Assembly (NCBI GenBank): GCA_965658655.1
Contig: CBFHTA010000001.1
Location: 8,722 to 72,721, forward strand
DNA: 64,000 nt
Reading direction: 5' to 3'
Source of the DNA: Candidatus Babelota bacterium
Lineage (GTDB): Bacteria > Babelota > Babeliae > Babelales > CAIQNR01
Below are positions 1 to 62,637 of the stretch, one piece after another (the stretch's first letter is position 1; each line of letters opens with the position of its first letter). The position numbers and the translations under genes are program-made. The notes beneath the pieces were generated by a model that saw only the letters and a program-made list of their open reading frames with translations, did no database searches and was not told the DNA's origin.

Positions 1-1157
1 GCTGCATTAATTTTCTCTTGATATTCTTTTTCAAGTTGAGCATTTGTCTGCTTCTCACGCAATGCACTTGCCTTGTTCGCAGCATCAAGAGCTTGCTGCG
101 CTAACTCTTCTCGTAACGATTCTTGTTCTGCTTGTAAACGGGTTGCTTCTTTTTGAGTTTTCCTTAGAAACCCCTCATAAACAAGCTGCTTTTCTTTTGC
201 TACTTGTTCAAGATCATCTGCCTTTTCTTTTGTTTGTGCCAATAAAGCTTGTTGTTTTGCCTCCTGCTCTTCTTTCCCCTCTGCACCAACCTTCTTTAAA
301 ATATTTTCGTAGGCAGACTTTGCTTTCTCTAAATTATTCTCAAGTTTTTTAACTTCTCGAGCACGAACTTTTAAGCGATCTCTCTGTGATTCTGCCGATC
401 TTACCTCACCCCTTAACCTTCCAATTGTTTCATTTATTTTATATTGCGCAGCTCTTTGAAAAGTATTATCCGTCTGTTTTTTATACATACTCTTTAATTG
501 ATCAACTCTAACGTTTGCAGCATCAATTTCTTCTTGTAGAACAGCACTTGTTTGATTCTTACCATCTACAACTCTTTGAGCTTCATTCAGCACAGACTGC
601 GCATTTGCAATCTTTTTTTTCATCTTTGGTTGTAATTCATCTATTTGTTCTGAGGTTAGCTGAAGTGGTGTATTACTTGAAGATTGGTTTCCATCTTCCG
701 TTTGCCCCATCATAGAACGGTATTGCTCCTGGTGTTCATCAGCAGTTTTACGTGCTTGATTAAAACTATTCTGTGCTTCATTTAAACCCTGCAAGTCAAG
801 CCCACGATTAATGTATGCAGCATTAGGACCCGATGCAAAACCACCTTGAACACTAGAATAAGTCCCTTGGTCGGGAGCAACAGGCACAAAACCTTCTGGT
901 TGAATTTGATCATATTGACCTCCAGATGTATGAAATGTTCCTTTAGAAGAAGAATCATTACCTTCTGGCTGAAAGTTTAAGATCGGCACTGAAGTGTCCG
1001 GAGAGTCTCCATATTCTTGCTCACGATAAAAATCTGATTCTTGGGGCTCTTCAACAAAAGTTGTAGGCTCTGTGGGCTCTGGAATAAAATCCATAACCAT
1101 AAGCTGCGAACTCATACCAAATAACAAAATAAGCGTAAATGTAGTGAGCCGCTTCAT
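1..1157 (-). CDS. Secreted coiled-coil hypothetical protein, 3' end outside window
   Basis: Translated by hand, not in ORF track because no stop lies in the window: GGAGG RBS then ATG at 1157, MKRLTTFTLILLFGMSSQLMVMDFIPEP..., open to base 1; later part is E/K/Q/A-rich heptad-like. Confidence 0.8.
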   Translation of the reverse strand, partial: MKRLTTFTLILLFGMSSQLMVMDFIPEPTEPTTFVEEPQESDFYREQEYGDSPDTSVPILNFQPEGNDSSSKGTFHTSGGQYDQIQPEGFVPVAPDQGTYSSVQGGFASGPNAAYINRGLDLQGLNEAQNSFNQARKTADEHQEQYRSMMGQTEDGNQSSSNTPLQLTSEQIDELQPKMKKKIANAQSVLNEAQRVVDGKNQTSAVLQEEIDAANVRVDQLKSMYKKQTDNTFQRAAQYKINETIGRLRGEVRSAESQRDRLKVRAREVKKLENNLEKAKSAYENILKKVGAEGKEEQEAKQQALLAQTKEKADDLEQVAKEKQLVYEGFLRKTQKEATRLQAEQESLREELAQQALDAANKASALREKQTNAQLEKEYQEKINA

Positions 1158-1264
1158 TGATACAACCTCCTAATAAACCTAATAATCTTTATTGAGATTA
1201 CCAATTCCCCATAGCTAAATGCAAGACAATTTAGCTATAATATATATAGGAGTCTTTATTAAGC

Positions 1265-1603
1265 TTAAAAAGAAAGTTCTTTACCTGCACAAAAATGTAG
1301 ATGTATATGAAAAACAGTCTGACCAACCCCTTTTCCATTATTACTGATAAGCCTAAAATTCTTAGCCTTAGGATCCGCATCAGAAATTTGTTTGGCCATT
1401 AAAAGCAAGTCACCACCTAAAGCTTTATCTTCAAGCTTTAGGTGCGCGATATCTTGAATATGTTTTTTTGGGATAATTAAATAATGAATGGGAGTCTTTG
1501 GAGCAATATCTTGAATCACAATAACATTGTCATTCTCAGCAATAATTTTTGCTGGAATCTCTTTATTAATAATTTTGCAAAAAATACAATCTTCATTATT
1601 CAC
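1265..1603 (-). CDS. Histidine triad (HIT) nucleotide-binding protein, HinT-like
   Basis: N-terminal DCIFCKI and C-terminal GQTVFHIHLH triad. Confidence 0.93.
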   Translation of the reverse strand: MNNEDCIFCKIINKEIPAKIIAENDNVIVIQDIAPKTPIHYLIIPKKHIQDIAHLKLEDKALGGDLLLMAKQISDADPKAKNFRLISNNGKGVGQTVFHIHLHFCAGKELSF

Positions 1604-1624
1604 TATTTATCTTTCTATCTAAAG

Positions 1625-2071
1625 TTATTTTCGCTTACTAATGCTCTTAGGAGTAAGAGTAATAAAGTCTTCATCAAGTGTAAGTTTGTTGTCAGATGCG
1701 TCCACATAACCATGCGCTTCTAAAAAACAACTGTTAGCAGTTGATGCAGCCGATATTGTAGCATGAACGAAAAATTTATTCCGTGGATCTTTTTGAATAT
1801 GATATTCTTTATAAAAATTTTCCATACCATGTTGCTTTGTCCCTAAAAAACCTACAAAGAATTGTTTTCCTATACCAACATCTTCAATTTTAAAAAGAAA
1901 AACTCTGCCCGGGTTTTCCTCACACCAACCCCTGATATGTTCAACATATTGCTTTTGTCTTATAGAACTAAAATCAGAACCTGACTTTACACACGCTACT
2001 TTTGCATCTGGTTGCATACACGAACTATTAAAAGAAAAAAGAAAGAGAAACAAAACAAACATTTTTTTCAT
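1625..2071 (-). CDS. Hypothetical exported protein
   Basis: AAGGAG RBS, MKKMFVLFLFLFSFNSSC signal-like N-terminus, no recognisable domain. Confidence 0.7.
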   Translation of the reverse strand: MKKMFVLFLFLFSFNSSCMQPDAKVACVKSGSDFSSIRQKQYVEHIRGWCEENPGRVFLFKIEDVGIGKQFFVGFLGTKQHGMENFYKEYHIQKDPRNKFFVHATISAASTANSCFLEAHGYVDASDNKLTLDEDFITLTPKSISKRK

Positions 2072-39562: not shown

Positions 39563-41893
39563 TTACATCAAAGTAATTGGCTCTTTAAATGCCACCTTTC
39601 CTGTTGCTCTCATTAATCCCATAAAAGAAGAAAAACTTCTTGTTCTCGCCGCCCAAGCTAACGCGGAAGTTGAATCTGCACCATGTTCTACACAACATTT
39701 TATCGTGTCATAATACGGAAACGAATGATGACGATCTGTATGATTATTATTGTAAAACTCAATTATTTTATTCAAAGTTTTATCAACATCCGCTTTACCT
39801 TCAAGTAACGTCTGAATGATTTTTCGATGAACCTCGTTATCGATTGCGTATCTTTCCGTAGGAACATATCCTAAATAAGCCTCTAATAATATATTAGGAT
39901 CAATTTCTAAGTTCACTAAACGCTCTATTCTAGAAAGATTGCCGAAACCCTTGTCTAAACGAGCTTTAAATAGTCCATTTAAATTCTCTGCTCTATTAAC
40001 AAGCACCTTGACCACATTCGAAGACGCCTTTTCACGGCTTAAAAGATAAATTAACTCCGGCACAGGATTCATACCTAAATCACATTTATAATGATAAAAA
40101 TCTACTTCATTTCTAAAAAACTTTCCATCAAGGCCTTTTCGAGGATCAAACATATATTTCATCATAAAATCTCCTTGATACGTGCTTCTACGAAGTTGAC
40201 TCTTTAAGGTAGGCCTTGCATCTGCACCTTGTTGCATTAAAAAACGTGCTATCTCTTTATTCTTAACGAGTTCATATGTATCCTGTAAATCACCGTTATC
40301 AATCTTTGCTCCATGCTCAAAAAGATATGTAACCATTTCAAAATTATTAATTCCTGCTGCTCCACTTATTCCTTGTGTTGCATCTGCTCCATGCTCAACA
40401 AACAATTTTACTTTCTCAAAGTTATTGATTAAAGCCGCCCGTTGAAGCAAGTGCATTCCTTGAACAAATGCTTGATTAATATTAAATGAAGGAAGGTTTA
40501 GAATTGTTTTAAAGAAAATATCTTTATCTTCAAATTTGATTCCAAAAATATCCTCCAAGTATTTTTTTGAAACAAAAAAAACAGTCGCTAAATAATTCAA
40601 AGCTCCTTGCGCTAGAGGTATTGATTGATTAATGTCTTCATATTCAACTAATTTTTTCACAAATTTGTAAATCCAATTTCTATTGTTTTGAAGTAAAGAA
40701 AATGCTGCATGATCTGTTGAGAATTCCCACAATCCTTCAACATTATACCTTTGATGCTGATCATTAACTGAAATTCTAAGAGAAGGATATTCATCATTTC
40801 TTGCTCCTTCAATAGATACTGTTCTTGTTTGAGTAGAAAGAATATCTTCATACTCTTGTATAGACTGAGCATTACAACCAAAAAGATGATTCATAATTTT
40901 TACAGTAGTATGTATATCAGTTGAAATTTCGTAGTCTGCTTCTTCATATTTCACTCCAGGAATACCTGATACGAGGCTCATCCATTCATTGGCTGCATTG
41001 CTATAATACTGTGTTCCTTCAATGTTTTTATATTTTTCTATAAATACTTTAAATGCAGGTAATACATGAACAGTTGCCGGCAACAAAGACAAATCTAAAT
41101 AGTTTTTTTCTTTATTATATAAAACAAGATTCACAAAAGCCCATAAGGATTGCTCTCCACAAATAGCAACGCTTTGATGATGTTGATAACGTGCAGAAAG
41201 TTGTCCCGAAGGTACTAATTGATCATAATTATTTTTTTTTATATGACTTAGCATTGTAATCATTTCTTCAATGTCCATTTGCTTTGCTTTTGAAAGCGTA
41301 GATGGATCAAATTGCTCCGGACAAACATCAATACCCAACCCCATACTATAGGCTTTAAAATCATCCTCCTTTTGACTTTGTGCAACAGCCAACATAGAAA
41401 ATACATAGGCTCTATCCTCAAGCTTCATTTGCTCTAAAGGGTTGAGCCGTTTTTTAAGAGCTTTTTTAAAATCTTTAAATTTAGAAAAAAACGGTGACTG
41501 TGTACAATGTGTTTGATGCCATGCAACAGTAGCATCACCTGCTATAAATTCGTTTAACTTATTTTCAAAAGCTGCACGAGCAAGTTTTCCTAATGTTACA
41601 GCATCAATGGAATAAAAAGGATTACCTTGCAACGCCGTTTGCCGCAAGCGACCATCAAGACAATGGAAAACATTTCTCGCAAATTGCCCTCTAGGACTCT
41701 CTTCATCGTAAATCTTTTTACCCAAAGTCCCCTCAAGTAAAAGAAGCCCCACTGCAGGAGAAAATGCCCGTTTATCTTCTGGAAAACTATTCAAAGTATT
41801 TTTAATCCACGTATGACGAACACCACTCCACATACCAAAAGCTGGTGTTACACCAAGCATTATCGCTAGTGAAAGTAAAAGTTTCTTAACCAT
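39563..41893 (-). CDS. Exported ankyrin-repeat protein with uncharacterised N-terminal domain
   Basis: GGAGG RBS, signal peptide, repeated VEHGAD / FEHGAK / QQGAD / EGKAD ankyrin turns in the C-terminal half. Confidence 0.8.
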   Translation of the reverse strand: MVKKLLLSLAIMLGVTPAFGMWSGVRHTWIKNTLNSFPEDKRAFSPAVGLLLLEGTLGKKIYDEESPRGQFARNVFHCLDGRLRQTALQGNPFYSIDAVTLGKLARAAFENKLNEFIAGDATVAWHQTHCTQSPFFSKFKDFKKALKKRLNPLEQMKLEDRAYVFSMLAVAQSQKEDDFKAYSMGLGIDVCPEQFDPSTLSKAKQMDIEEMITMLSHIKKNNYDQLVPSGQLSARYQHHQSVAICGEQSLWAFVNLVLYNKEKNYLDLSLLPATVHVLPAFKVFIEKYKNIEGTQYYSNAANEWMSLVSGIPGVKYEEADYEISTDIHTTVKIMNHLFGCNAQSIQEYEDILSTQTRTVSIEGARNDEYPSLRISVNDQHQRYNVEGLWEFSTDHAAFSLLQNNRNWIYKFVKKLVEYEDINQSIPLAQGALNYLATVFFVSKKYLEDIFGIKFEDKDIFFKTILNLPSFNINQAFVQGMHLLQRAALINNFEKVKLFVEHGADATQGISGAAGINNFEMVTYLFEHGAKIDNGDLQDTYELVKNKEIARFLMQQGADARPTLKSQLRRSTYQGDFMMKYMFDPRKGLDGKFFRNEVDFYHYKCDLGMNPVPELIYLLSREKASSNVVKVLVNRAENLNGLFKARLDKGFGNLSRIERLVNLEIDPNILLEAYLGYVPTERYAIDNEVHRKIIQTLLEGKADVDKTLNKIIEFYNNNHTDRHHSFPYYDTIKCCVEHGADSTSALAWAARTRSFSSFMGLMRATGKVAFKEPITLM

Positions 41894-51023: not shown

Positions 51024-53108
51024 CTATAAGCCAATCTTTTTAAAGAATGCGTCTTTGTTTGGTTCTCTGCCAAGATAGTCGCGCAACATATCATCTGGAT
51101 TTTTACTTGCGCCAGGAGCAAGAATTGCTTTCCTGTAACGGCTACCTGCTTCTGGATTCAACAAACCTTCTTTTTCTATTTGCGCAAACACATCATCGGC
51201 AAATACCTGGGCCCAAAGATATGAATAATACTTGGATCCGTACAATTCTGCACCCAGATGGCCAAAACTACACTCATCATGAATATCCTCATCATGCTCT
51301 ATATAAGGCACACACTCATTCATATATTTTTTATAGATTTGCGCGGCATCTTTATCTTGAGCATCGCCAAAGCACTCTAAAGCTATATAGCTCATTGCAA
51401 CCTGACGAGCATACAACATACCTTTTCCAAATTTTAATTGCTTAAGTTTTTTATCAATTAACTCATCTGGCATTGATTTACCTGTTTTATAATGATGAGT
51501 TAGACCCCGAAGAACCTCTTTGTTTTCTATCCAATTTTCAAGTAATAACGATGGTAATTCTAAAAAATCTACATTCGCAAATACTGGAGAAGATTGGTAC
51601 ACAAAAGGAGTTTCGGCTAACGCACAGTGAATAGCATGTCCAAACTCATGAAAAAATGTTTTTACCTCCTTAAAAGACAATAAGGACGGTTTACCGTTAG
51701 TTGGCTTTGTAAAATTACAAAGCATAGTAGAAACGGTAGGATATATTTTTTCTGAAGTACGAGCTGTCATAACCCCAGGGAAAGTCATGGCATGAGTAAA
51801 TTTATTTTTACGTGGATGCATATCCAAAAATACATAACTCAAAACTGCACCCGACTTTTCACTAATTTTAACTAACCGTACATCTGAGTGCCATACCTGA
51901 GGATTTTCAATAGTTTCAATCTTTAAATTAAAGAATTTTTCATAAATATCTAAAAGTCCACGAATCGTCTGATCCATGGGAAAATATTCAGCGATTTCTT
52001 GCTCATCAACATCATAATGTTTCTTCTTATAATACGTACTAACGTAAGCACTATCCCAATCTTTAAGTTTACCATCCCGAGTTAACGAAACATCTTCAGG
52101 TAGATCCTTGGTTATTTCTTTAAACTCCTGGCAAGCTTTTTTAACAATTGACTCTTTCATATCGCGGTGAAATGAACAAACACGCTCTGGTGTTTTAGCC
52201 ATATGTGGGCTTATATCAAAATGAGCATAACTTTTAAAACCAAGTGATTTTGCCAATTTATCTCGAACATCAATCAAATCTTTTAAAATTTTTTCGTTAG
52301 CTGGATATCCCCTATTACAAAAAACTTTTTCAAATTTTTTACGAGTACTCTCTACATAACAGTTATAAAAAATAGCGCTTGCCGTTGGATAATCCGTAAC
52401 TAAAATATACTTCCCATCATCATCTCTCTCTAATGCTTTAATAAAATCTTCAGAAACTCCTGCAAGCTCTTGCTCTTCAACCAAAATAAAACTGTTGTCA
52501 TTGGTGATATTCTGAACAAATTTTGGGCCAAGAGTAGCTTCTTGTTTCTTAAGCACCATCATTTTTTTTTGAACTTCTGGTGCAAGCTCTGCTCCATTGC
52601 GTTTAAATTCATTAAGCATATTGTTTAAGAAGTACCATTGTTCAAAAGTAAGGTTATCTTCTTGCGCATGCATATTAGCATAACTTTGCACTACTTTATA
52701 AAGAGATGCATTGCACGTAATATTTTCATTTGAAAAATCTCTTATTTGACGCTCTAACTGAAACGCTCTTTTAACAAAAGCTTTTTCACAATAAGCGTTT
52801 TTAATGATATTTAAAATCCAATACTCACACTCTAAATACCCTCGAGCAGTATCAATAGCATGCAAAACATTATCTTTATTTTGTTGCATTTTAGGAATAA
52901 CAATCACCTGATTAATAATTTCAAGAGCCTGCCCCTGCGCATACTCAACTCTTTCTTCCATCTCTTCAATAGTTTTAGGATATACCTTAGCTAAATCATC
53001 AAAAGTTTGAATATGTATTTGCCCATCAACATCTCGGGGTAATAAATGAGCCTGTAAATGCCCACACAACAACATCCCAACAAAAATACTGCTCTTACTA
53101 AATTTCAT
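51024..53108 (-). CDS. M3 family metallopeptidase (thimet oligopeptidase-like), copy 2
   Basis: FHEFGHAIH, DFLELPS, FGHL...YGSKYYSY, LGREPN; signal-like N-terminus. Confidence 0.93.
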   Translation of the reverse strand: MKFSKSSIFVGMLLCGHLQAHLLPRDVDGQIHIQTFDDLAKVYPKTIEEMEERVEYAQGQALEIINQVIVIPKMQQNKDNVLHAIDTARGYLECEYWILNIIKNAYCEKAFVKRAFQLERQIRDFSNENITCNASLYKVVQSYANMHAQEDNLTFEQWYFLNNMLNEFKRNGAELAPEVQKKMMVLKKQEATLGPKFVQNITNDNSFILVEEQELAGVSEDFIKALERDDDGKYILVTDYPTASAIFYNCYVESTRKKFEKVFCNRGYPANEKILKDLIDVRDKLAKSLGFKSYAHFDISPHMAKTPERVCSFHRDMKESIVKKACQEFKEITKDLPEDVSLTRDGKLKDWDSAYVSTYYKKKHYDVDEQEIAEYFPMDQTIRGLLDIYEKFFNLKIETIENPQVWHSDVRLVKISEKSGAVLSYVFLDMHPRKNKFTHAMTFPGVMTARTSEKIYPTVSTMLCNFTKPTNGKPSLLSFKEVKTFFHEFGHAIHCALAETPFVYQSSPVFANVDFLELPSLLLENWIENKEVLRGLTHHYKTGKSMPDELIDKKLKQLKFGKGMLYARQVAMSYIALECFGDAQDKDAAQIYKKYMNECVPYIEHDEDIHDECSFGHLGAELYGSKYYSYLWAQVFADDVFAQIEKEGLLNPEAGSRYRKAILAPGASKNPDDMLRDYLGREPNKDAFFKKIGL

Positions 53109-53121
53109 TTAAAGCCTTTCG

Positions 53122-55209
53122 TTACAAGCCAATCTTTTTAAAGAATGCATCTGTGTTTGGTTCTCTACCAAGATAGTCGCGCAACATATCATCTGGTTTA
53201 CGACTTCCACCTACACCAAGAATATGTTTTTTATAGCGTGCGCCTGCTGCGGGATTAAGCAGCCCTTCTTTTTCAATCTGCGCAAAGACATCATCTGAAA
53301 AAACACGTGACCACATATAACCATAATATTTTGCACCGTAACCAGACAGATGTCCAAAACTACACCAGCCATGAGTGGTATCGTCATACACACCATTAGG
53401 AGCAAAAGTTTTAGTATACTTTTTATAAATGTCTTCTGCTTTAGTAGATTGATCTATACCAAAACAATCAAGAGCAATTAAACCCAGCCCCATTTGGCGA
53501 GCGTTAAAAGAACCTTGACCAAATTTTAATTGCTTAAGTTTTTTATCAATTAACTCATCTGGCATTGATTCACCTGTTTTATAATGGTGAGTTAAACCTT
53601 GAAGAATTTCCTTATTCTCCATCCAGTTTTCAAGCAACTGAGAAGGCAACTCAACAAAATCTATTTTAACAGAGGTACCGGATTGAGAAGCCAATTTAGT
53701 TGTTCCCAAAACACCATGAATCGCATGGCCGAATTCGTGGAAGAAAGTTTCCACCTCTCCAAACTTAAGAAGTGAAGGTTTATCAGCAGTCGGTTTAGTA
53801 AAATTACAAACAACAGAAGTGACAGTTGGATAAACTACTCCATCTCGCTCAATAGTAGTAACCCCTGGGAACATTGCCGCATGACCATATTTGTTTGACC
53901 GAGGAAACATATCCAAGAAAACATAGCCACGAACAGTTCCGTCTTTATCGCTAATTTTTACCAAACGAACATCTTCATGCCACGCTTTTGCATCGGCAAT
54001 GGTCTCTATCTTTAAATCAAAAAACTTTTCATAAATATCTAATAATCCTCGAACTGTTTGTTCCATTGGAAAATATTCAGCAAGCTTTTGCTCATCAACA
54101 TCGTAATGTTTTTTCTTAAAGTGCGTACTTACATACCCACCATTCCAACCTTCAAGCTTGCCCTCTTTAGTTAAAGAAACACCTTCTGGAAGATCTTTCA
54201 CAAATTCTTTAAACTCTTCGTTTGATTTTTCAAGAATCTTATCTTTCATATCAAGCTGAAACTTATACGCACGCTCAGGACTTTTAACCATTTGATCATC
54301 CAAATCTAAATGGGCATAACTTGCAAAACCTAAAGCTTTAGCAAGTTTGTGGCGTGTAGCTCGTAGATTCTCGAATACTTCTACATTCACGGGATAAGCA
54401 CGATTCTTAAACACCTTGCTAAAGCGCTTTCGTGTATCTTCTACTTTGCAATACTGCAAAACCATATCTGCACTTGGGTAATCTGTCTTAATAACGTACT
54501 GTCCATCATTATCTTTCGTAAGACCTGCAATAAAATCGTCAGAAACTCCATCTAATTGTTCTTTAGTTGCAGTAATAAAGCTTGTATCGTTATTAATATT
54601 TTGTGAAAACACTTGTGAAATTTTCTGTAATTCTTTTTGAAGCTCTACAATATTCTTGCGTTCATCTCCAGGTAAATCAAGACCAGAACGCTTAAAGTCA
54701 TCCAACATTTCAGAAAGCGCTAATTGCTCTTCTGAATCAAGTTTCTCTTGTTTTGCATTGCCGTTAGCATAAGACTTAAATGCTTTATATAAAGCAACAT
54801 TATTACTTAGATGTTCAAGTACAAAAGACTTAATAGCTAAATCTTCTCTTGCAGCTTCTTCACGAATAGCTTTATCTGGATGGGTATACATAACTAATTC
54901 AAGAATGCCCAATTCAGGACCAAAGTATGCCCAAGAACTATCAAGTGCATGAATCATATTCTGTTTGTTTTGATCTGCATGCGGAACTGCAATAATACCA
55001 TCGATAATCTTTTTTGCTTGATCCTGCGCAAACTGTGATCGATTTTGTATCTCAGAAACTGTACTTGGGTATACTCCATACACTTGTTCTAAATCTGTAA
55101 TATGTACATGACCCTGGGTATCTCTTGGCAACATAGCGTTTCTTTCGCTTTTAATAAAAAAAGTAGCTGCACACAGCAGTACAATGCTTAATAAGGTAAT
55201 TTTCTTCAT
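53122..55209 (-). CDS. M3 family metallopeptidase (thimet oligopeptidase-like), copy 1
   Basis: GAGGGAG RBS before ATG 55209; FHEFGHAIH, DFVELPSQLLENW, FGHLSGYGAKYYGY. Confidence 0.95.
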   Translation of the reverse strand: MKKITLLSIVLLCAATFFIKSERNAMLPRDTQGHVHITDLEQVYGVYPSTVSEIQNRSQFAQDQAKKIIDGIIAVPHADQNKQNMIHALDSSWAYFGPELGILELVMYTHPDKAIREEAAREDLAIKSFVLEHLSNNVALYKAFKSYANGNAKQEKLDSEEQLALSEMLDDFKRSGLDLPGDERKNIVELQKELQKISQVFSQNINNDTSFITATKEQLDGVSDDFIAGLTKDNDGQYVIKTDYPSADMVLQYCKVEDTRKRFSKVFKNRAYPVNVEVFENLRATRHKLAKALGFASYAHLDLDDQMVKSPERAYKFQLDMKDKILEKSNEEFKEFVKDLPEGVSLTKEGKLEGWNGGYVSTHFKKKHYDVDEQKLAEYFPMEQTVRGLLDIYEKFFDLKIETIADAKAWHEDVRLVKISDKDGTVRGYVFLDMFPRSNKYGHAAMFPGVTTIERDGVVYPTVTSVVCNFTKPTADKPSLLKFGEVETFFHEFGHAIHGVLGTTKLASQSGTSVKIDFVELPSQLLENWMENKEILQGLTHHYKTGESMPDELIDKKLKQLKFGQGSFNARQMGLGLIALDCFGIDQSTKAEDIYKKYTKTFAPNGVYDDTTHGWCSFGHLSGYGAKYYGYMWSRVFSDDVFAQIEKEGLLNPAAGARYKKHILGVGGSRKPDDMLRDYLGREPNTDAFFKKIGL

Positions 55210-55217
55210 AACTCCCT

Positions 55218-57170
55218 CTAATCTTTTTGTAATCTTAACCATTGCTCTCTCAATTCAATAGCTTTCTCAAAATCCATTTCTTCTGCAGCTTTATGCATCT
55301 CATACTCAAGTTGCGCCAACTGCTTTTGTGATTCTTCTTTAGAAGCTTTTCGCTTATCTTTTTTATACGCATGAGAAGCCTTTTTAATAGCTTCTTGCAA
55401 CTTAGAAATACTCTTAGTTACTTCGCGCTGCACGCTCTCTGGTGTAATACCATGTTCCTTATTGTAGTCTTGTTGCAACTTTCGTCTACGATCAGTCTCA
55501 TCAATCGCATTTTTCATTGATCCAGTTATTTTATCTGCGTACATAATCACTTTGGCATCAACGTTACGTGCCGCACGCCCAATGGTTTGAATTAATGAAC
55601 GTTTATCTCGCAAGAAACTTTCTATGTCTGCATCCATAATAGCAACTAAACCTACCTCAGGAAGATCAAGACCTTCTCGCAATAGGTTGACTCCTACTAA
55701 ACAATCAAATACACCCATGCGCAATTTTTGTAACAATTCAGTTCTGTCTGGCGTTTTAATATCACTATGCAAATAACAAACTTTTAATTTTCTTTCTTCT
55801 AAGTAACGCGCTAAATCTTCTGCAAGCTTTTTAGTAAGCACAGTAACAAGCGTTCGCTGATTGTTGTCTCGCTTTTCTTTAATCTGTTTAACCAAATGAT
55901 CCATCTGCCCCACACGCCCAATCACTTCTATTTCAGGATCTACTAGACCTGTTGGTCGAATAACTTGTTCAACAAGCGCATTAGAGTTTTCTAACTCATA
56001 GGGGCCTGGTGTTGCAGAAACAAATACCACATCATTAAAATATTTTTCTATTTCTTCAAACTGTAATGGACGGTTATCAAGCGCAGATGGAAGCCTAAAA
56101 CCAAAATCTATGAGAGATTTTTTACGCGACCTATCTCCGGCATACATGCCACGTAGTTGGGGCAATGCAATGTGAGATTCATCAATAATACACAAAAAAT
56201 CTTTAGGAAAGAAATCAAACAAACAAAATGGTTGCTCTCCATCTTTGCGTCCGTCAAAATGCACCGAATAATTTTCAATACCACTACAATAACCCAGATG
56301 ATCTATCATCTCTAAATCTCTGGCTGTTCTTTGAGCAATCCTGTGACGATATAACTCGTTTTCCACCGTAGGCAAATATTCTTTCATCTCATTTTGAATA
56401 CTTGCAATAGCAGATCGCTTTTTTGCTTCAGTGGTAACAAAATGCTTTGCCGGGAAAACAATGGTGTTGTCCAAGTCTTTAACAACACGATTATTATCTC
56501 TCGTTACCCACTGCAATCCTTCAATTGTGTCTCCAAATAGTTCAATGCGCAGTTTGTCTTTTTGATACGGCAAATTAACTTCTACCGTGTTTCCACGCAC
56601 CTGAAAAGTACCTGAACCTTTTTCGTAATCATCTCGTTTGTATTGAATAAAAATAAGCTTGCGCAATAAATCTTGGCGTTTAAAGGTGTCGCCAACCTTT
56701 AATCCCAGCGCCAAGTTTTTGTAATCTGAGGGGTCTCCTAATGCATAAATAGTAGAAACCGACGCAATCACAATAGTGTCTTTACGGTTTACTAAAGAAG
56801 CTGTGGCCTCGACGCGTAAACGTTCTATCTCGGTATTTATTTTAGTTTCTTTGGCAATATACATGTCTTGAGCAGGTAAATACGATTCTGGTTGGTAGTA
56901 GTCATAGTAACTCACAAAATAGCACACTTTGTTTTCGGGAAAGAAAAGCGAGAATTCTTCATAAAGCTGTGCGGCCAGCGTTTTATTAGGAGAAAGTATA
57001 AGCACTGGTTTGTCTTGTTGTGCAATAATATTTGCCATAGTAAAAGTTTTACCAGAACCGGTTACCCCCATAAGCGTAGACTTACCTGGACGGCTTTCGA
57101 GCAACTCTTTTATCGCCTTTGGTTGACTCCCTTTTGCTTTAAAAGGTGCTTTTAATTTAAATAGTGCCAT
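55218..57170 (-). CDS. uvrB: Excinuclease ABC subunit B
   Basis: GVTGSGKTFT, YFVSYYDYYQPE, DESH, GFRLPSALDNRPL, QTIGRAARN, C-terminal UVR; likely start ATG 57170. Confidence 0.98.
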   Translation of the reverse strand: MALFKLKAPFKAKGSQPKAIKELLESRPGKSTLMGVTGSGKTFTMANIIAQQDKPVLILSPNKTLAAQLYEEFSLFFPENKVCYFVSYYDYYQPESYLPAQDMYIAKETKINTEIERLRVEATASLVNRKDTIVIASVSTIYALGDPSDYKNLALGLKVGDTFKRQDLLRKLIFIQYKRDDYEKGSGTFQVRGNTVEVNLPYQKDKLRIELFGDTIEGLQWVTRDNNRVVKDLDNTIVFPAKHFVTTEAKKRSAIASIQNEMKEYLPTVENELYRHRIAQRTARDLEMIDHLGYCSGIENYSVHFDGRKDGEQPFCLFDFFPKDFLCIIDESHIALPQLRGMYAGDRSRKKSLIDFGFRLPSALDNRPLQFEEIEKYFNDVVFVSATPGPYELENSNALVEQVIRPTGLVDPEIEVIGRVGQMDHLVKQIKEKRDNNQRTLVTVLTKKLAEDLARYLEERKLKVCYLHSDIKTPDRTELLQKLRMGVFDCLVGVNLLREGLDLPEVGLVAIMDADIESFLRDKRSLIQTIGRAARNVDAKVIMYADKITGSMKNAIDETDRRRKLQQDYNKEHGITPESVQREVTKSISKLQEAIKKASHAYKKDKRKASKEESQKQLAQLEYEMHKAAEEMDFEKAIELREQWLRLQKD

Positions 57171-57349: not shown

Positions 57350-58063
57350 AATAAAGAGAAGAATATTTTTTTAATCCTATTCATAAATGCTTTTTCACTT
57401 AATGCTGCAGATAGTTCTAATGTTGACGCTGAAGAACCTTTTGTATTGATTCAAGAGGCAAACAGCATAGAAGAAGCAATTAAACCTCCTTCTAATTTAT
57501 TAGAAGATACCGTAAGAACATACCAACTAAAAATTCTAGAACTACTTTACAAAAAAGACTATCAAGCCGTTTTAGACATTGTTAAAAAAGATCTTAGTGC
57601 GTTACCTGAAGAAACATGGCATCTTTTTTTAGAAAATAACTCATTAAAAGGAAAACAATGGACAAATCTTACCTTTGAACAAGCTGCTGAAATAGCTGAA
57701 CCATTTAATGGTGCCCTCAATCAAGAAACAATAATAAAAGGGTTTAAAGTGGGTCACAAAAAATATTTTGACAAGCCTGGCGGAGCAATGCTTTTAGAAC
57801 TTGTCCTACAAGACCTCAACAGTAAAACAAAAGAAAAGATTAATAACTTTGTAACAACATTAGCCTGTTATACTTCTGATGTACTCCTTTTTAATCTTAT
57901 GAAAACATATTTTTCTGAGAAAGTAGATTCTAGTAAATACAAACCTCTTTCTGTAAGAGATATTGAAGATCTTTCAAAGCTCTTAGAAAAAACAGAATTA
58001 TCTGGTCAAAAAGTTAAAGAAGCGCAAGAGAAACAACAATGGGCAGAAGAAGAGATAGACTAA
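57350..58063 (+). CDS. Hypothetical exported protein with damaged or non-canonical start
   Basis: ORF track 57446..58063; the frame is open back to 57350 and encodes a signal peptide (IFLILFINAFSLNA) with no ATG. Confidence 0.6.
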   Translation, partial: NKEKNIFLILFINAFSLNAADSSNVDAEEPFVLIQEANSIEEAIKPPSNLLEDTVRTYQLKILELLYKKDYQAVLDIVKKDLSALPEETWHLFLENNSLKGKQWTNLTFEQAAEIAEPFNGALNQETIIKGFKVGHKKYFDKPGGAMLLELVLQDLNSKTKEKINNFVTTLACYTSDVLLFNLMKTYFSEKVDSSKYKPLSVRDIEDLSKLLEKTELSGQKVKEAQEKQQWAEEEID

Positions 58064-58233
58064 TAACAATAAAAAGAGAGAACTATTGTCTTAAACAGTT
58101 ATGGAACACAGTTGAAAATGAACGAGAAACAACAATAAACGAATAAATAATATTATCTTTTACTATTCAATAAAAGAAAGTATAATCCTATCTGGGCAAA
58201 CTATTTAGGGAATTTTACCAGCAAGGAACTTGC

Positions 58234-59181
58234 ATGTTGTTTCTACTCTTTTTAATCATATTTTTTCAAACCAATACAGCACAAAAGAAGATTGAATCTA
58301 CATTTAAGGTTTATAGTCAGATCAATCGACAAAAAATGACTTCTCCTGCCCGCAAAAAAACTATAACTCCTTTATGGCTAAAAAAAATTGCAAAAAAAAG
58401 TCCCGAGAAAATCACACTTGAAGAACTTGGAAAACAAGAAGAACAAAAATGGAAAAGAGAGAAAAAAATATCTGATGCAGCATGGGAAGAAGCAACAAGA
58501 CTCTGGCAAGAGAACCTAAACAATCCTTATCGCTGTCTAGAAGATCCAAAAAAGTGCAATGCCGTTTTTTATCTAAGAGTCAATCTTAGAGGTCATTTCA
58601 TGTCACACCACAAAGACAAGAAGAAAAAAAAGAGTTTATCCACAGAACAACCCGTCAAACCACTTTGCAAAAGAATTGCCCAGCAACACTGGAAAGAAAC
58701 CTCTAAAGAGGAAGCCTGTCATATTCATCAAATTAAACAAATAGTTTGTCGCTGGAGCAAAAATACCTCAAATAAACTCGCACAAGAAGCAATCTCTGCT
58801 CTTGCTACTCAAGCAGACCAATCTTCCCCCGATACTACAGTTTCTACTAAAAGAAAAAGAGATGAAGAAAGCACGACAACATTACGTTCCCCAAAGATGC
58901 TACATAGTGACGAAGACCGTATTTTTAAGTGTCAAGAAGGAAACTGCAAAGCATCTTTTTCTAAATATTTAACCCTAGGCACTCACTGTAGCAACAAACA
59001 TCGATCCACTAAATTCTCAACTCCTAAACCCTGTTCAGAGTGTGCTCATGAACAAAATCGACCTCGAACATTTTCCTATAAATCAACTGCTCATCTTGGC
59101 AGATGCAAGCAGATAAATGATGAACTCAAGAGAAAAGTGGAACTAAAGACTTTAAGACGAAAAAAAGCTTGCAAAAACTAA
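58234..59181 (+). CDS. Exported C2H2 zinc-finger protein
   Basis: Signal peptide; C-x6-C-x12-H-x3-H and C-x4-C-x12-H-x4-H; basic clusters. Confidence 0.8.
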   Translation: MLFLLFLIIFFQTNTAQKKIESTFKVYSQINRQKMTSPARKKTITPLWLKKIAKKSPEKITLEELGKQEEQKWKREKKISDAAWEEATRLWQENLNNPYRCLEDPKKCNAVFYLRVNLRGHFMSHHKDKKKKKSLSTEQPVKPLCKRIAQQHWKETSKEEACHIHQIKQIVCRWSKNTSNKLAQEAISALATQADQSSPDTTVSTKRKRDEESTTTLRSPKMLHSDEDRIFKCQEGNCKASFSKYLTLGTHCSNKHRSTKFSTPKPCSECAHEQNRPRTFSYKSTAHLGRCKQINDELKRKVELKTLRRKKACKN

Positions 59182-59235
59182 AAGAGAAAGACTAAAGGTT
59201 AGTAATACACTGTAGCTATAAAAAAAAGGAGGAGA

Positions 59236-59934
59236 ATGAAAAAACAAATCTTTTTAGCACTACTTTGTACAACAAGAACTAATAACTGCGATAATTGGTT
59301 GGGTGAGAATGCTCCAAAAACAAGACATCGAAAAAACTTACAAGAGCCTGCAAAAACAACTTCTCTATGTAGACCCTCTTGTCAGCAAGAACTTTCTCCA
59401 TCATCTTTTATAAAGCACTGCCCCCTTTCTAGCGACAATTCAAAAATTACTCTTTATGAATGTTTAGAAGATAGAAAACCAAGTCCCTCTGATCATGAAT
59501 ATGGAACCCAATTATTATCTAACTCAATAATAAGATACCAACAAGAAATAAAAGAGCTCCAAACACAAAAGGAAAAAATTTCCTGCTGGAAGTTATGGAT
59601 CCAATGGAAGTTGATGCGCTCTCAAGATATTAATCGAAAGTGGTTACAGGCAGCACAACAAGACCTTCTGCATCATCAAAGTCTTAAAAAAGAACATACA
59701 GGATGTAATTTTAAAACTACCGATATTGACAAATTTAAAGCGCACCTTAGAGAAATTCACGAATGCCCAGATCTTAAAAAACCAACCTTCAACTGTAAAA
59801 TCTGCGGTGCAAAAGACACACACTATTCTTTCCATCCTGGAGTATGTAATTTTAAACACCAACAAATACCCAAAGAACAATACAAAAAAACAAATAATCT
59901 TGATTTTGTAAGGACACTTCTAGCACAAAACTAA
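59236..59934 (+). CDS. Exported zinc-finger protein
   Basis: AGGAGGAG RBS; MKKQIFLALL start; C-x12-H-x4-H then CKIC...H-x3-C. Confidence 0.72.
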   Translation: MKKQIFLALLCTTRTNNCDNWLGENAPKTRHRKNLQEPAKTTSLCRPSCQQELSPSSFIKHCPLSSDNSKITLYECLEDRKPSPSDHEYGTQLLSNSIIRYQQEIKELQTQKEKISCWKLWIQWKLMRSQDINRKWLQAAQQDLLHHQSLKKEHTGCNFKTTDIDKFKAHLREIHECPDLKKPTFNCKICGAKDTHYSFHPGVCNFKHQQIPKEQYKKTNNLDFVRTLLAQN

Positions 59935-60182: not shown

Positions 60183-62621
60183 CTACCGAACAACAAATGA
60201 AATTAAACGACCAGGAACCCAAATAGTTTTAACTATCTCTTTGCCCTCAAGCCACTTAGCCACCAGCTCTTTGGCTTGCGGTTCAACGTGATCTTGTTTT
60301 GCAGCGCGATCGATCGTTAACTGACCGCGAACTTTACCGTTAACTTGAACGCCAATAGTTACTTCTGTTTGCTTTGCTAGTTCAGGATCAAATGTTGGCC
60401 ACAAACCATCGCTCAATTGTTTACCACAAACTGTTTCTAACAACTCCGCACCCATATGAGGCGCAAGGATAGATAACGCGATAATCACTTGTTCAGCAGA
60501 TATTTTACCAAGTTTAAGTTCTTTAAGATCGTTAAAGAGTTCCATAGCAGCAGAAATTGCCGTGTTCGGTTTAAACAACGCAAGCCGCTCTTGATAATCT
60601 TTTAAGAATCGTTGCACACGCTTTTTTGCTTTAATGTCTTCTTGATCGTCTGCAACCACATTATCTGCGCCAAAATAGGTAACTACTTTTTGTGAAAAAC
60701 GCTTAATGCCTTCAAGGCCAGCATCTTGCCACTCACAATCAAGTTCTGGTGGCCCCATGAATAACATGTACATACGCAATACATCTGATCCGTATTTCTC
60801 CACAATTTCATCTGGATTAACCACATTACCCTTTGATTTAGACATTTTTTCAACGGCACCACTTTTCTCTGAAAGCTTGCAGACCATACCCTGATTAAAG
60901 AGTTGTTTGAATGGTTCATTAAACGGTATAAAACCTTTTTCGTGCAAAAACTTTATATAAAATCGAGCGTATAACAAATGCAAAATTGCATGCTCAATTC
61001 CACCTACATAAAGATCAACGGGAAGCCAATACTTCATATCTTCTGCATCAAAGGGTTTATCTGTAAGATTTGGATTTGGATAGCGCAAGAAATACCAACA
61101 CGATCCTGCCCACTGAGGCATAGTGTTGGTTTCTCGTTTTGCAGGACCAAAGCATTCTGGACACTCTGTGTTTACCCATTCTTCAATACCTGCAAGTGGA
61201 GACTCTCCAGTTCCTGTTGGTTCGTACTTTTCTACCTCAGGAAGCTTTACCGGAAGCTGATCCTCTGGCACCGGAACAATGCCACACTTTTCACAACGAA
61301 TTAACGGAATTGGCTCTCCCCAATAACGTTGTCGCGAGAAGACCCAATCTCGTAAACGATACGAGGTTTGAGGAACCGCTATGTCTTTTTCTTGAACATA
61401 CTTAATAATTTCTTGGCGAGATGTGCCTGCCACCTTACCTTCGAATGCTTTGGGCGCAGCCAAGATGCCTTTTTGCATATCGGTATAACACACTTCTAAG
61501 TTACGCACCTTTTCTGCAAGTTCTTCATTATTTGACGGAAAGAGAACAGCCTTTAAAGGAATGTTGTATTTCTTAGCAAAAGCAAAATCTCGTTCATCAT
61601 GAGCAGAACATTTTACAACACCTGTTCCATAATCTGCCAACGCAAAACTTGCTACCCAAATAGGTAAGTCTCCGTTACCTACAGGATCAACTATATATCG
61701 ACCCGTAAAAACACCTTCTACTTCTTTTTCTTCTTCTCTACCTAGTTTTGCACGTTTTTCGAGCATTTTTTGACAGACACCAAGAACTTCTTGCTTATTA
61801 CCTACACCTTCGAGAAGGGTTGGCAATAATGGATGATCGGGCGCAATCGCTACAAACGTATCCGCAGCAAAAGACTCAAAGTGAGTAGAGAATGTTTGAA
61901 TTTCAAGATCCATATCTTTAACTGGAGCAGTAAATAAAAGGCCTTCACTTTTACCAATCCAGTTACGCTGCATTAATTTAACTTTTTCTGGCCAATCAAG
62001 CGTATCTAAATCATTAAGTAAAGGTTCAGCATATTCGGTAATTTTCAAGACCCACTGAGGAATCTGCTTCTTCTCAACCTCAGTTCCACAACGCTCACAA
62101 CCCCTATCTACCACCTCTTCATTGGCAAGGCCAGTTTTACAAGATGGACACCAATTAATAGGCATATTTGATTCATACGCAAGGCCAGCTTTGAACATTT
62201 GCACAAAAATCCACTGAGTCCACTTGTAATAATCAGGGTCAGTAGTATTTAATTCTTTAGACCAGTCATACAAAGCACCAACTTCTTTAAGCTGCTCTTT
62301 GAACGTTGCAATATTTTTTTCGGTAGAGGTTTTGGGATGAATACCTTTTTTAATAGCATCGTTTTCTGCTGGAAGCCCAAATGCGTCCCACCCCATTGGA
62401 TGAAGCACATTGTAACCTTCAAGCCACTTCATACGTGCATAAACATCAGACAGTACATACCCACGCCAATGACCAACATGCAGACCAGAACCAGAAGGGT
62501 AAGGGAACATATCAAGACAATAATATTTCTTGCTTTGATTGTCTTTTTTCACCTGTGCATCGGGATTCTCTTCCCAACGCTTTTGCCACTTCTTTTCTAC
62601 TTCGGCTACATTGTATTGCAT
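60183..62621 (-). CDS. leuS: Leucine--tRNA ligase
   Basis: MFPYPSG.GLHVGH, GWDAFGLPAEN, CP1 editing domain, SRQRYWG, KMSKSKGN; likely start ATG 62621. Confidence 0.98.
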   Translation of the reverse strand: MQYNVAEVEKKWQKRWEENPDAQVKKDNQSKKYYCLDMFPYPSGSGLHVGHWRGYVLSDVYARMKWLEGYNVLHPMGWDAFGLPAENDAIKKGIHPKTSTEKNIATFKEQLKEVGALYDWSKELNTTDPDYYKWTQWIFVQMFKAGLAYESNMPINWCPSCKTGLANEEVVDRGCERCGTEVEKKQIPQWVLKITEYAEPLLNDLDTLDWPEKVKLMQRNWIGKSEGLLFTAPVKDMDLEIQTFSTHFESFAADTFVAIAPDHPLLPTLLEGVGNKQEVLGVCQKMLEKRAKLGREEEKEVEGVFTGRYIVDPVGNGDLPIWVASFALADYGTGVVKCSAHDERDFAFAKKYNIPLKAVLFPSNNEELAEKVRNLEVCYTDMQKGILAAPKAFEGKVAGTSRQEIIKYVQEKDIAVPQTSYRLRDWVFSRQRYWGEPIPLIRCEKCGIVPVPEDQLPVKLPEVEKYEPTGTGESPLAGIEEWVNTECPECFGPAKRETNTMPQWAGSCWYFLRYPNPNLTDKPFDAEDMKYWLPVDLYVGGIEHAILHLLYARFYIKFLHEKGFIPFNEPFKQLFNQGMVCKLSEKSGAVEKMSKSKGNVVNPDEIVEKYGSDVLRMYMLFMGPPELDCEWQDAGLEGIKRFSQKVVTYFGADNVVADDQEDIKAKKRVQRFLKDYQERLALFKPNTAISAAMELFNDLKELKLGKISAEQVIIALSILAPHMGAELLETVCGKQLSDGLWPTFDPELAKQTEVTIGVQVNGKVRGQLTIDRAAKQDHVEPQAKELVAKWLEGKEIVKTIWVPGRLISFVVR

Positions 62622-62637
62622 GTTTTCCTCTATCAAA

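Follow-up and report, generated by a model that had tools for sequence, protein, structure and literature searches.

Candidate signal-bearing C2H2-type zinc-finger proteins encoded in a variable leuS-uvrB interval of a Babeliales bacterium

Introduction

The closest functional analogues of the two proteins described here would be the fungal MoHTR effectors: MoHTR1, MoHTR2 and MoHTR3 of Magnaporthe oryzae are small secreted C2H2 proteins reported to move into the nuclei of rice cells and to reprogramme the expression of defence genes (PMC12488382, PMC10189765). In this study, we analysed a window of 64,000 nucleotides (nt; G+C content about 35%) from contig CBFHTA010000001.1 of a Candidatus Babelota bacterium, in which two open reading frames (ORFs) on the forward strand, P0001 (58234..59181, 315 amino acids, aa) and P0002 (59236..59934, 232 aa), encode zinc-finger-like proteins with signal-like N-termini. 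What the two groups would have in common is that the proteins are small and evolve fast, and that an N-terminal signal peptide is joined to a C2H2 finger and to determinants of nuclear import. The MoHTR proteins differ in being fungal and in being secreted via the endoplasmic reticulum and the biotrophic interfacial complex, and the window proteins in having a C2HC finger and a basic helix as well. No sequence relationship between the two groups was detected, on the basis of an exhaustive search which returned only five relatives and without the MoHTR sequences for comparison.

Dependentiae are obligate intracellular parasites of protists. For the cultured member Chromulinavorax destructans, which is found in the host cytoplasm, signal peptides were reported on 44% of the coding sequences; orphan genes and ankyrin proteins are over-represented among those secreted, export is inferred to run through a Sec system, and structures that may be outer-membrane vesicles were observed (PMC6561590). 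A Sec signal on a eukaryote-like domain is accordingly the effector architecture described for Dependentiae (Deeg 2019, PMC6561590). P0001 and P0002 resemble the C. destructans secretome in phylum, in the presumed Sec route and in the occurrence of signal peptides on eukaryote-like or orphan proteins; they differ in that the available sections mention no zinc-finger effector, the word “zinc” appearing once, for a transporter (PMC6561590). Members of the Dependentiae are widespread and nearly uncultured, and what is known of their means of manipulating the host consists for the most part of ankyrin repeats and orphan genes.

Among bacterial effectors, the TAL proteins of Xanthomonas are delivered by type III secretion. 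Together with the Ehrlichia TRP proteins they are nucleomodulins, i.e., bacterial proteins sent to the host nucleus where they bind DNA or chromatin, a description which P0001 and P0002 could share (PMC8112483, PMC12488382). The TRP proteins differ by type I secretion (PMC8112483), and both groups differ by other DNA-binding folds. No bacterial C2H2 nucleomodulin was found in the literature searched, outside of which most subscription journals lay, and the same literature contained no relevant pairing of Dependentiae, Babeliales, Babela or Vermiphilus with C2H2 or zinc finger. Signal-peptide-bearing, eukaryote-like effectors of Dependentiae are known, and what would be new here are candidate members of the C2H2 type.

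Bacterial proteins of the Ros/MucR type bind DNA and contain a Cys2His2 zinc site; they reside in the cytoplasm, their ligands are spaced differently, and their globular fold is larger. An assignment of P0001 and P0002 to this group was rejected, as neither a ROS_MUCR Pfam match at E up to 10 nor an NCBIfam match was obtained, and the contrast which an earlier, sequence-only reading of this DNA had drawn with cytoplasmic Ros/MucR fingers is a fair one.

Results

A conserved finger module links P0001 and P0002

In the reading we prefer, P0001 is made up of a degenerate module and, behind it, a complete one. The complete module comprises finger B (residues 231-256, 58924..59001; F-x-C-x4-C-x12-H-x4-H with the putative ligands C233, C238, H251 and H256), finger C (residues 267-291, 59032..59106; C-x2-C-x16-H-x3-C, i.e., of the C2HC type) and a C-terminal basic helix (residues 292-315, 59107..59178, including RRKK at 308-311), which was delimited by AlphaFold2 and conservation; these and all further features of the two genes lie on the forward strand. 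In the degenerate module, finger A (residues 101-126, 58534..58611; C-x6-C-x12-H-x3-H) runs into the basic tract KDKKKKK (residues 127-133, 58612..58632), and a nuclear-localisation-like KRKR (residues 206-209, 58849..58860) stands ahead of the finger pair. The sequence-only reading had reported both ORFs, these motifs and the basic tracts, all of which are present as described. Its two classically spaced fingers in P0001 are reduced to one: finger B agrees with the classical C-x2-4-C-x12-H-x3-5-H and, with F231 ahead of the first Cys, F242 behind the second and L248 ahead of the first His, has the expected hydrophobic core, but the C-x6-C of finger A is wider than the classical 2-4. Likewise, the Cys/His pattern CSEC...HLGRC exists, but it forms a C2HC finger and not a “knuckle”.

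An exhaustive HMMER search of 1.84 billion representatives returned six proteins at E ≤0.001, namely P0001 and five relatives (P0004-P0008). The 164-aa protein P0004 matches residues 21-163 of P0001 (58294..58722; phmmer E 2.5e-23, 43% identity) and keeps all four ligands of finger A, while P0005-P0008 match residues 210-314, P0005 with two copies of the module. In a five-sequence alignment, C233, C238, H251, H256, C267, H287 and C291 are invariant, as are Y245, L248, an HCS motif and an IN-x-EL motif which opens the basic C-terminal tail; P0008 has Ser at the position of F242, P0007 is the one sequence without the second Cys of finger C, and the first Cys pair of finger B is spaced C-x4-6-C in all five sequences. 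A seven-sequence alignment of the module leaves six invariant columns, every one of them Cys or His, and C267, H287 and C291 are among the residues kept in all seven. Lys/Arg-rich stretches occur in several relatives at a place similar to that of the P0001 KRKR, as read from the alignment. These comparisons give a conserved unit in which a signal peptide and a low-complexity linker are followed by one C2H2 finger, one C2HC finger and a basic amphipathic helix.

P0002 carries a short signal-like N-terminus and a diverged copy of this module, composed of finger B' (residues 154-175, 59695..59760; H-x2-C-x12-H-x4-H with C157, H170 and H175), a KKP linker and finger C' (residues 187-204, 59794..59847; C-x2-C-x9-H-x3-C), so that seven of the eight putative ligands are retained. 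The claim that P0002 repeats the C-terminal layout of P0001 therefore holds (C157-x12-H170-x4-H175, KKP, C-x2-C-x9-H-x3-C).

For comparison, the best 80 of 120 UvrB relatives were taken from a scan with the UvrB of the window, with one genome per species. Their UvrB identity to the window is 61-89%, led by L006 (89%), L004 (78%) and L001 and L005 (77% each), and many carry the titles Dependentiae, Babeliales or TM6, the remainder being unclassified or otherwise labelled; by these uvrB relatives, the window can be assigned to a Babeliales (Dependentiae) bacterium. L006 is labelled as an Alteromonas metagenome-assembled genome; with uvrB, leuS and peptidase M3 75-89% identical to the window, it looks mislabelled or mis-binned.

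Direct BLASTP of P0001 against P0002 gave no similarity (best E 3.3). Over the finger pair, however, a 268-aa protein of L006 (3553-4359), the positional counterpart of P0002, matches both P0001 (E 3e-5) and P0002 (E 3e-6); it also aligns to the finger A region of P0001 (E 0.005), and its finger C' spacing is identical to that of P0002. Because this protein bridges the two, P0001 and P0002 are diverged paralogues, as had been suggested before from the layout.

A regular-expression scan for C2H2 patterns in 2096 ORFs of at least 80 aa from the window and the 80 loci gave 14 matches, compared to a mean of 4.55 in 20 shuffled controls. Strongly hydrophobic N-termini were found on nine of these (P0001, three in L006, two each in L002 and L034, one in L016), and the remaining five look like spurious ORFs; most of the eight signal-plus-finger ORFs beyond P0001 lie upstream of uvrB. 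Further searches added no members: a word-indexed protein search with P0001 returned the query itself alone from 1075 candidates; the same search with the seven-sequence profile recovered P0001 and P0002 alone out of 3017 candidates, also missing the query's own relatives; and a genome-contig scan with a three-sequence family alignment yielded 16 stretches with none confirmed, in a collection which seemingly lacks the window's own genome. The family is very small and fast-evolving, and its known members so far come from the window, L006 and the five database relatives.

The finger pair is predicted to adopt a C2H2-like fold

Modelled alone with AlphaFold2, the module reached a mean predicted local distance difference test (pLDDT) of 77.7 and a predicted template modelling score (pTM) of 0.64. 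Finger B was predicted as ββα at pLDDT 86-90 (strands at module residues 12-13 and 22-23, helix 26-36), and finger C as a second β-hairpin with a short helix, after which a 24-residue helix follows (module residues 72-95). The module profile matched seven sequences in PDB, all seven of them C2H2 proteins: ZNF410 (E 0.0068), ZHX1 (0.058) and CTCF (0.082), then ZAP1, Miz-1, a designed finger and TFIIIA. The alignment with CTCF entry 1x6h covers both fingers and places a Cys opposite the last ligand of the module. With P0001 as single query, phmmer against PDB found the zinc fingers of AEBP2 only (best E 0.09), and P0002 gave no meaningful match there. The likeness to AEBP2, ZNF410, CTCF and ZHX1 consists of the C-x4-C spacing and the hydrophobic core of finger B, at marginal E-values; the window proteins differ by having one or two fingers and a signal peptide and by lacking eukaryotic partner domains.

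Within the loci fetched, the clearest bona fide C2H2 example of the phylum is a signal-bearing protein of L034 encoded directly upstream of uvrB, which passes PF00096 with 34 bits against a threshold of 25.2 (E 3.3e-8). Finger B of the module was aligned in register with this Pfam-validated finger by hhalign (E 3e-4, probability 40%), and the comparison with the three-finger protein of L006 was not convincing (probability 1.8%). The L034 protein that passes PF00096 has five finger-like patterns and is one of two signal-bearing proteins encoded at this place (347..1796, reverse strand). A search of the ESM Atlas did not reach an informative recognition score and gave no more than leads to C2H2 clusters at 0.91. 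Overall, we conclude that the module behaves as a C2H2+C2HC finger pair in these models and alignments, with putative zinc binding.

N-terminal signals and basic composition

The N-termini of 50 window ORFs were judged for export signals by a crude hydrophobicity score with a threshold of 2.3. P0001 has the top score of all (3.54), with a hydrophobic core of ten residues followed by QTNTA, which agrees with the signal-like N-terminus ascribed to it before; the same ascription to P0002 is only marginally borne out. The signal-like peptide of P0001 (residues 1-16, 58234..58281) aligns with the signal peptides of P0005-P0008, in which a hydrophobic stretch of 10-14 residues gives way to small residues at the presumed cleavage site and then to Pro/Asp-rich linkers; an obvious signal peptide is thus found in four of the five database relatives. 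From these N-termini and their conservation, export of P0001 and P0002 appears plausible. A membrane anchor is unlikely, the hydrophobic cores being just 7-14 residues long. The lipobox consensus is L-[ASTVI]-[GAS]-C, and a lipoprotein reading of P0002 was rejected, since A-L-L precedes C11 and does not fit. In total, N-termini that resemble signals or membrane segments occur on 26 of the 50 window ORFs, among them a RING-finger protein and an ankyrin protein, a share in agreement with the 44% given for C. destructans (PMC6561590).

Charge and composition were ranked for 49 window ORFs. P0001 ranks third by net positive charge and leads in the number of runs of at least four Lys/Arg, of which it has three, and the Cys+His content is highest in P0002 (9.9%) and P0001 (7.3%). 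Nuclear-localisation-like motifs, scored as K[KR]x[KR], occur in P0001 in KRKR at 206 and in the poly-K run from 129.

Both genes are preceded by purine-rich ribosome-binding sites, AAGGA 6 nt ahead of the P0001 ATG and GGAGGAG at 59228..59234 for P0002, both read from the sequence. A promoter-like site TTTACT-16-TATAAT (58159..58186) lies 48 nt upstream of P0001 as the best scan match (10/12); taken together, promoter and terminator scanning gave no excess over chance (7 promoter-like sites vs. 8.7 expected).

The leuS-uvrB interval

The two finger genes lie in a variable island bordered on the left by uvrB (55218..57170, reverse strand; Pfam UvrB domains) and on the right by leuS (60183..62636, reverse strand; assigned by Pfam and 86% identical to leuS of L006). 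The order nudix-leuS-[interval]-uvrB-peptidase M3 is common to many loci, and both borders were present in 17 of them (L002, L004, L006, L009, L012, L016, L018, L019, L030, L032, L035, L051, L054, L055, L057, L059 and L080), where the interval measures from 69 base pairs (bp; L009) and 221 bp (L004) up to 7 kb. It mostly contains small signal-bearing orphan genes, and finger proteins were found in L006 and L002 only among these 17. Some intervals also hold transaldolase-like and glycosyltransferase-like ORFs, as judged by N-terminal motifs only.

In L006 the interval consists of four genes, all with classical signal peptides (of the MKK type on the finger proteins): a homologue of the window protein P0003, the 268-aa protein with the family module and two more finger proteins, one of 196 aa having two classical C2H2 fingers and one of 199 aa in which a C2HC finger accompanies two of the C2H2 type. 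Compared to the identity of uvrB (89%) and leuS, P0003 is only 34% identical and the finger genes do not correspond one-to-one. Such differing content even at 89% uvrB identity would fit host-driven turnover of effectors, and the interval can be described, from these comparisons, as a hotspot of fast gene-content turnover in Babeliales.

P0003 itself (57350..58063, forward strand) belongs to a family of unknown function without a Pfam or NCBIfam match above threshold; its homologue in L006 (5069-5830, 253 aa, 34% identity, E 6e-27) carries a full signal peptide. In the window, an in-frame signal-like stretch lies upstream, with no ATG, GTG or TTG before the TTG at 57446, and a start at this TTG would give a protein without signal. 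In the DNA alignment an ATT (57365) falls close to the position of the L006 ATG. The ribosome-binding site is weakened, and P0003 may either have lost its start codon or use a near-cognate one.

Discussion

We tentatively favour, at nearly even chances, the view that P0001 and P0002 are Sec-signal-bearing zinc-finger proteins which are released to the host and bind host nucleic acid or chromatin. The signal peptide would take the unfolded protein through Sec, as suggested by the sequence and its conservation in relatives, and the protein could then leave with the signal-peptide secretome into the host cytoplasm, as proposed from the literature on the cultured C. destructans (PMC6561590). Zinc binding and folding might take place in the reducing host cytosol, and the architecture would allow the finger pair and the basic helix to bind host nucleic acid or chromatin, with KRKR and the poly-K tracts of P0001 acting as nuclear import signals. 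What the data show is the architecture and its conservation, and nuclear targeting, like the other functional steps, is inferred. A far-reaching version of this idea, namely a first bacterial Sec-secreted C2H2 family which enters the protist nucleus, binds DNA or chromatin, reprogrammes transcription and diversifies by duplication, domain loss and turnover in the leuS-uvrB hotspot, is rather unlikely to apply in full.

Several results weigh against host release and nucleic-acid binding. On the side of the fold, P0001 and P0002 gave nothing above threshold in Pfam or NCBIfam: the best model for P0001 was zf-C2H2_6 (E 8.7; 6.9 bits vs. a gathering threshold of 25), that for finger B' was zf-C2H2_ZNF462 (E 0.008; 16.2 bits vs. 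27) and that for finger C' was zf-CCHC_2 (E 0.008, below threshold). The HMM search proposed with the sequence-only reading hence stayed below the gathering thresholds, and the two proteins are not formal members of the Pfam C2H2 families. Full-length P0001 was modelled poorly by AlphaFold2 (pLDDT 59.5), with a helical finger A instead of ββα. Foldseek with the module found nothing in PDB at E ≤0.001 (best 0.1), the matches listed all being tandem C2H2 DNA-binding proteins and none of them significant, and nothing significant in BFVD (best E 0.045), which gives no support for a link to C2H2 proteins of giant viruses. Finger B' lacks its first Cys, with His154 standing two residues before C157, and the finger B helix positions usual for base contact, whose numbering we take from Zif268, hold mostly small or polar residues by reading. 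Just one to two good fingers also count against a classic sequence-specific DNA reader.

On the side of targeting, K[KR]x[KR] is absent from the whole of P0002. Compared to the Sec pattern of a basic n-region, a hydrophobic core of 7-15 residues and small residues at -3 and -1, its N-terminus has an MKK n-region with a hydrophobic core of only seven residues and scores 1.81 against the threshold of 2.3, while that of P0001 has a TNTA c-region, no basic n-region and, read by eye, Lys-Lys after the core; P0004 as predicted has no signal peptide. With half of the proteome carrying such N-termini, a signal peptide alone is weak evidence of host targeting, and a Pfam scan of the window identified no route across the outer membrane, none being known for this organism.

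The most likely of the alternatives, if still an unlikely one, keeps secretion and lets the proteins act in the host cytoplasm, with the fingers as a protein-protein or RNA module and the basic tracts incidental or membrane- or RNA-binding. AEBP2, the best single-sequence PDB match, is a subunit of a chromatin protein complex. Together with this match, the missing K[KR]x[KR] in P0002, the single such motif in several relatives and the mostly small or polar base-contacting positions would suit a cytoplasmic role, and C2H2 and C2HC fingers can mediate protein contacts (PMC12774644). Such a role is opposed by the three Lys/Arg runs and the high net charge of P0001, by the conservation of the basic helix behind the fingers and by the fold and profile matches listed, all of them DNA-binding finger arrays.

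A second alternative concerns P0002, and possibly P0003, which might be decaying copies with little or no remaining function. We regard this as distinctly unlikely. The loss of the first finger Cys, a hydrophobic core shorter than in the L006 counterpart and the loss of the canonical start codon ahead of the signal-like stretch of P0003 speak for decay, but P0002 has an intact frame of 232 codons, a strong ribosome-binding site and seven of eight putative ligands, and the His at the H-x2-C position could replace the missing Cys.

Residence in the envelope, i.e., periplasmic or membrane-tethered proteins whose Cys/His clusters serve the bacterium by binding or buffering metal or through disulfide formation, appears improbable. 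A Sec signal alone delivers to the periplasm only, the route across the outer membrane was not identified in the window, and many of the 26 ORFs with such N-termini are necessarily envelope proteins. In this respect the sequence-only reading had gone too far: even if the bacterial chromosome is out of reach of an exported finger, this alone is no pointer to the host nucleus, as protein or RNA targets in the host cytoplasm or a role in the periplasm may apply instead. The module, however, goes beyond richness in Cys and His by its full C2H2 signature and hydrophobic core; host-directed proteins typically show strong positive charge, linkers of low complexity and rapid gene turnover; and the interval is empty in L009 and L004, which indicates that its genes are dispensable for cell function.

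Cytoplasmic DNA-binding regulators like Ros/MucR, with hydrophobic N-termini that are no export signals, are very improbable: the missing basic residue before the P0001 core with Lys-Lys behind it, the short segment of P0002 and its absence from P0004 would fit, but P0005-P0008 have cores of 10-14 residues followed by small-residue motifs and Pro/Asp-rich stretches, the L006 proteins carry classical MKK-type signals, Pfam gave no Ros/MucR match at E up to 10, and a soluble regulator has no use for a conserved hydrophobic segment at its N-terminus.

If release to the host and binding of nucleic acid or chromatin prove true, the secreted C2H2 family would add a nucleic-acid- or chromatin-targeting class to the Dependentiae toolkit, be, within the literature searched, the first candidate for a bacterial nucleomodulin of the C2H2 type, and represent a convergent counterpart of the fungal MoHTR effectors. 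With a small module of about 90 residues and a defined hotspot the idea is directly testable, and the variable helix residues could show recognition evolving under host pressure. Should the proteins stay periplasmic, they would form an unusual zinc-binding envelope family of limited interest.

Other signal-bearing proteins of the window

Apart from the leuS-uvrB interval, the window encodes ordinary housekeeping genes and further proteins with signal-like N-termini. P0009 (19864..20670, reverse strand, 268 aa) consists of 35% Lys+Arg, contains 11 K[KR]x[KR] motifs and is the most basic of the 49 ORFs ranked; it has no Pfam family and may be another secreted protein of a polycationic or nucleic-acid-binding kind. 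P0010 (9462..10184, forward strand, 240 aa) combines a KKRHKKRK tract with a C-terminal RING-H2 domain (zf-RING_2, E 2e-10) and is a candidate secreted E3-ligase-like effector. Moreover, the N-terminus is clearly signal-like in an ankyrin-repeat protein (39563..41893, reverse strand) and in one of two tandem M3 peptidases (53122..55242, reverse strand), while the other (51024..53108, reverse strand) scores 2.19 against the threshold of 2.3. These ankyrin and M3 peptidase N-termini match secreted classes reported for Chromulinavorax (PMC6561590).

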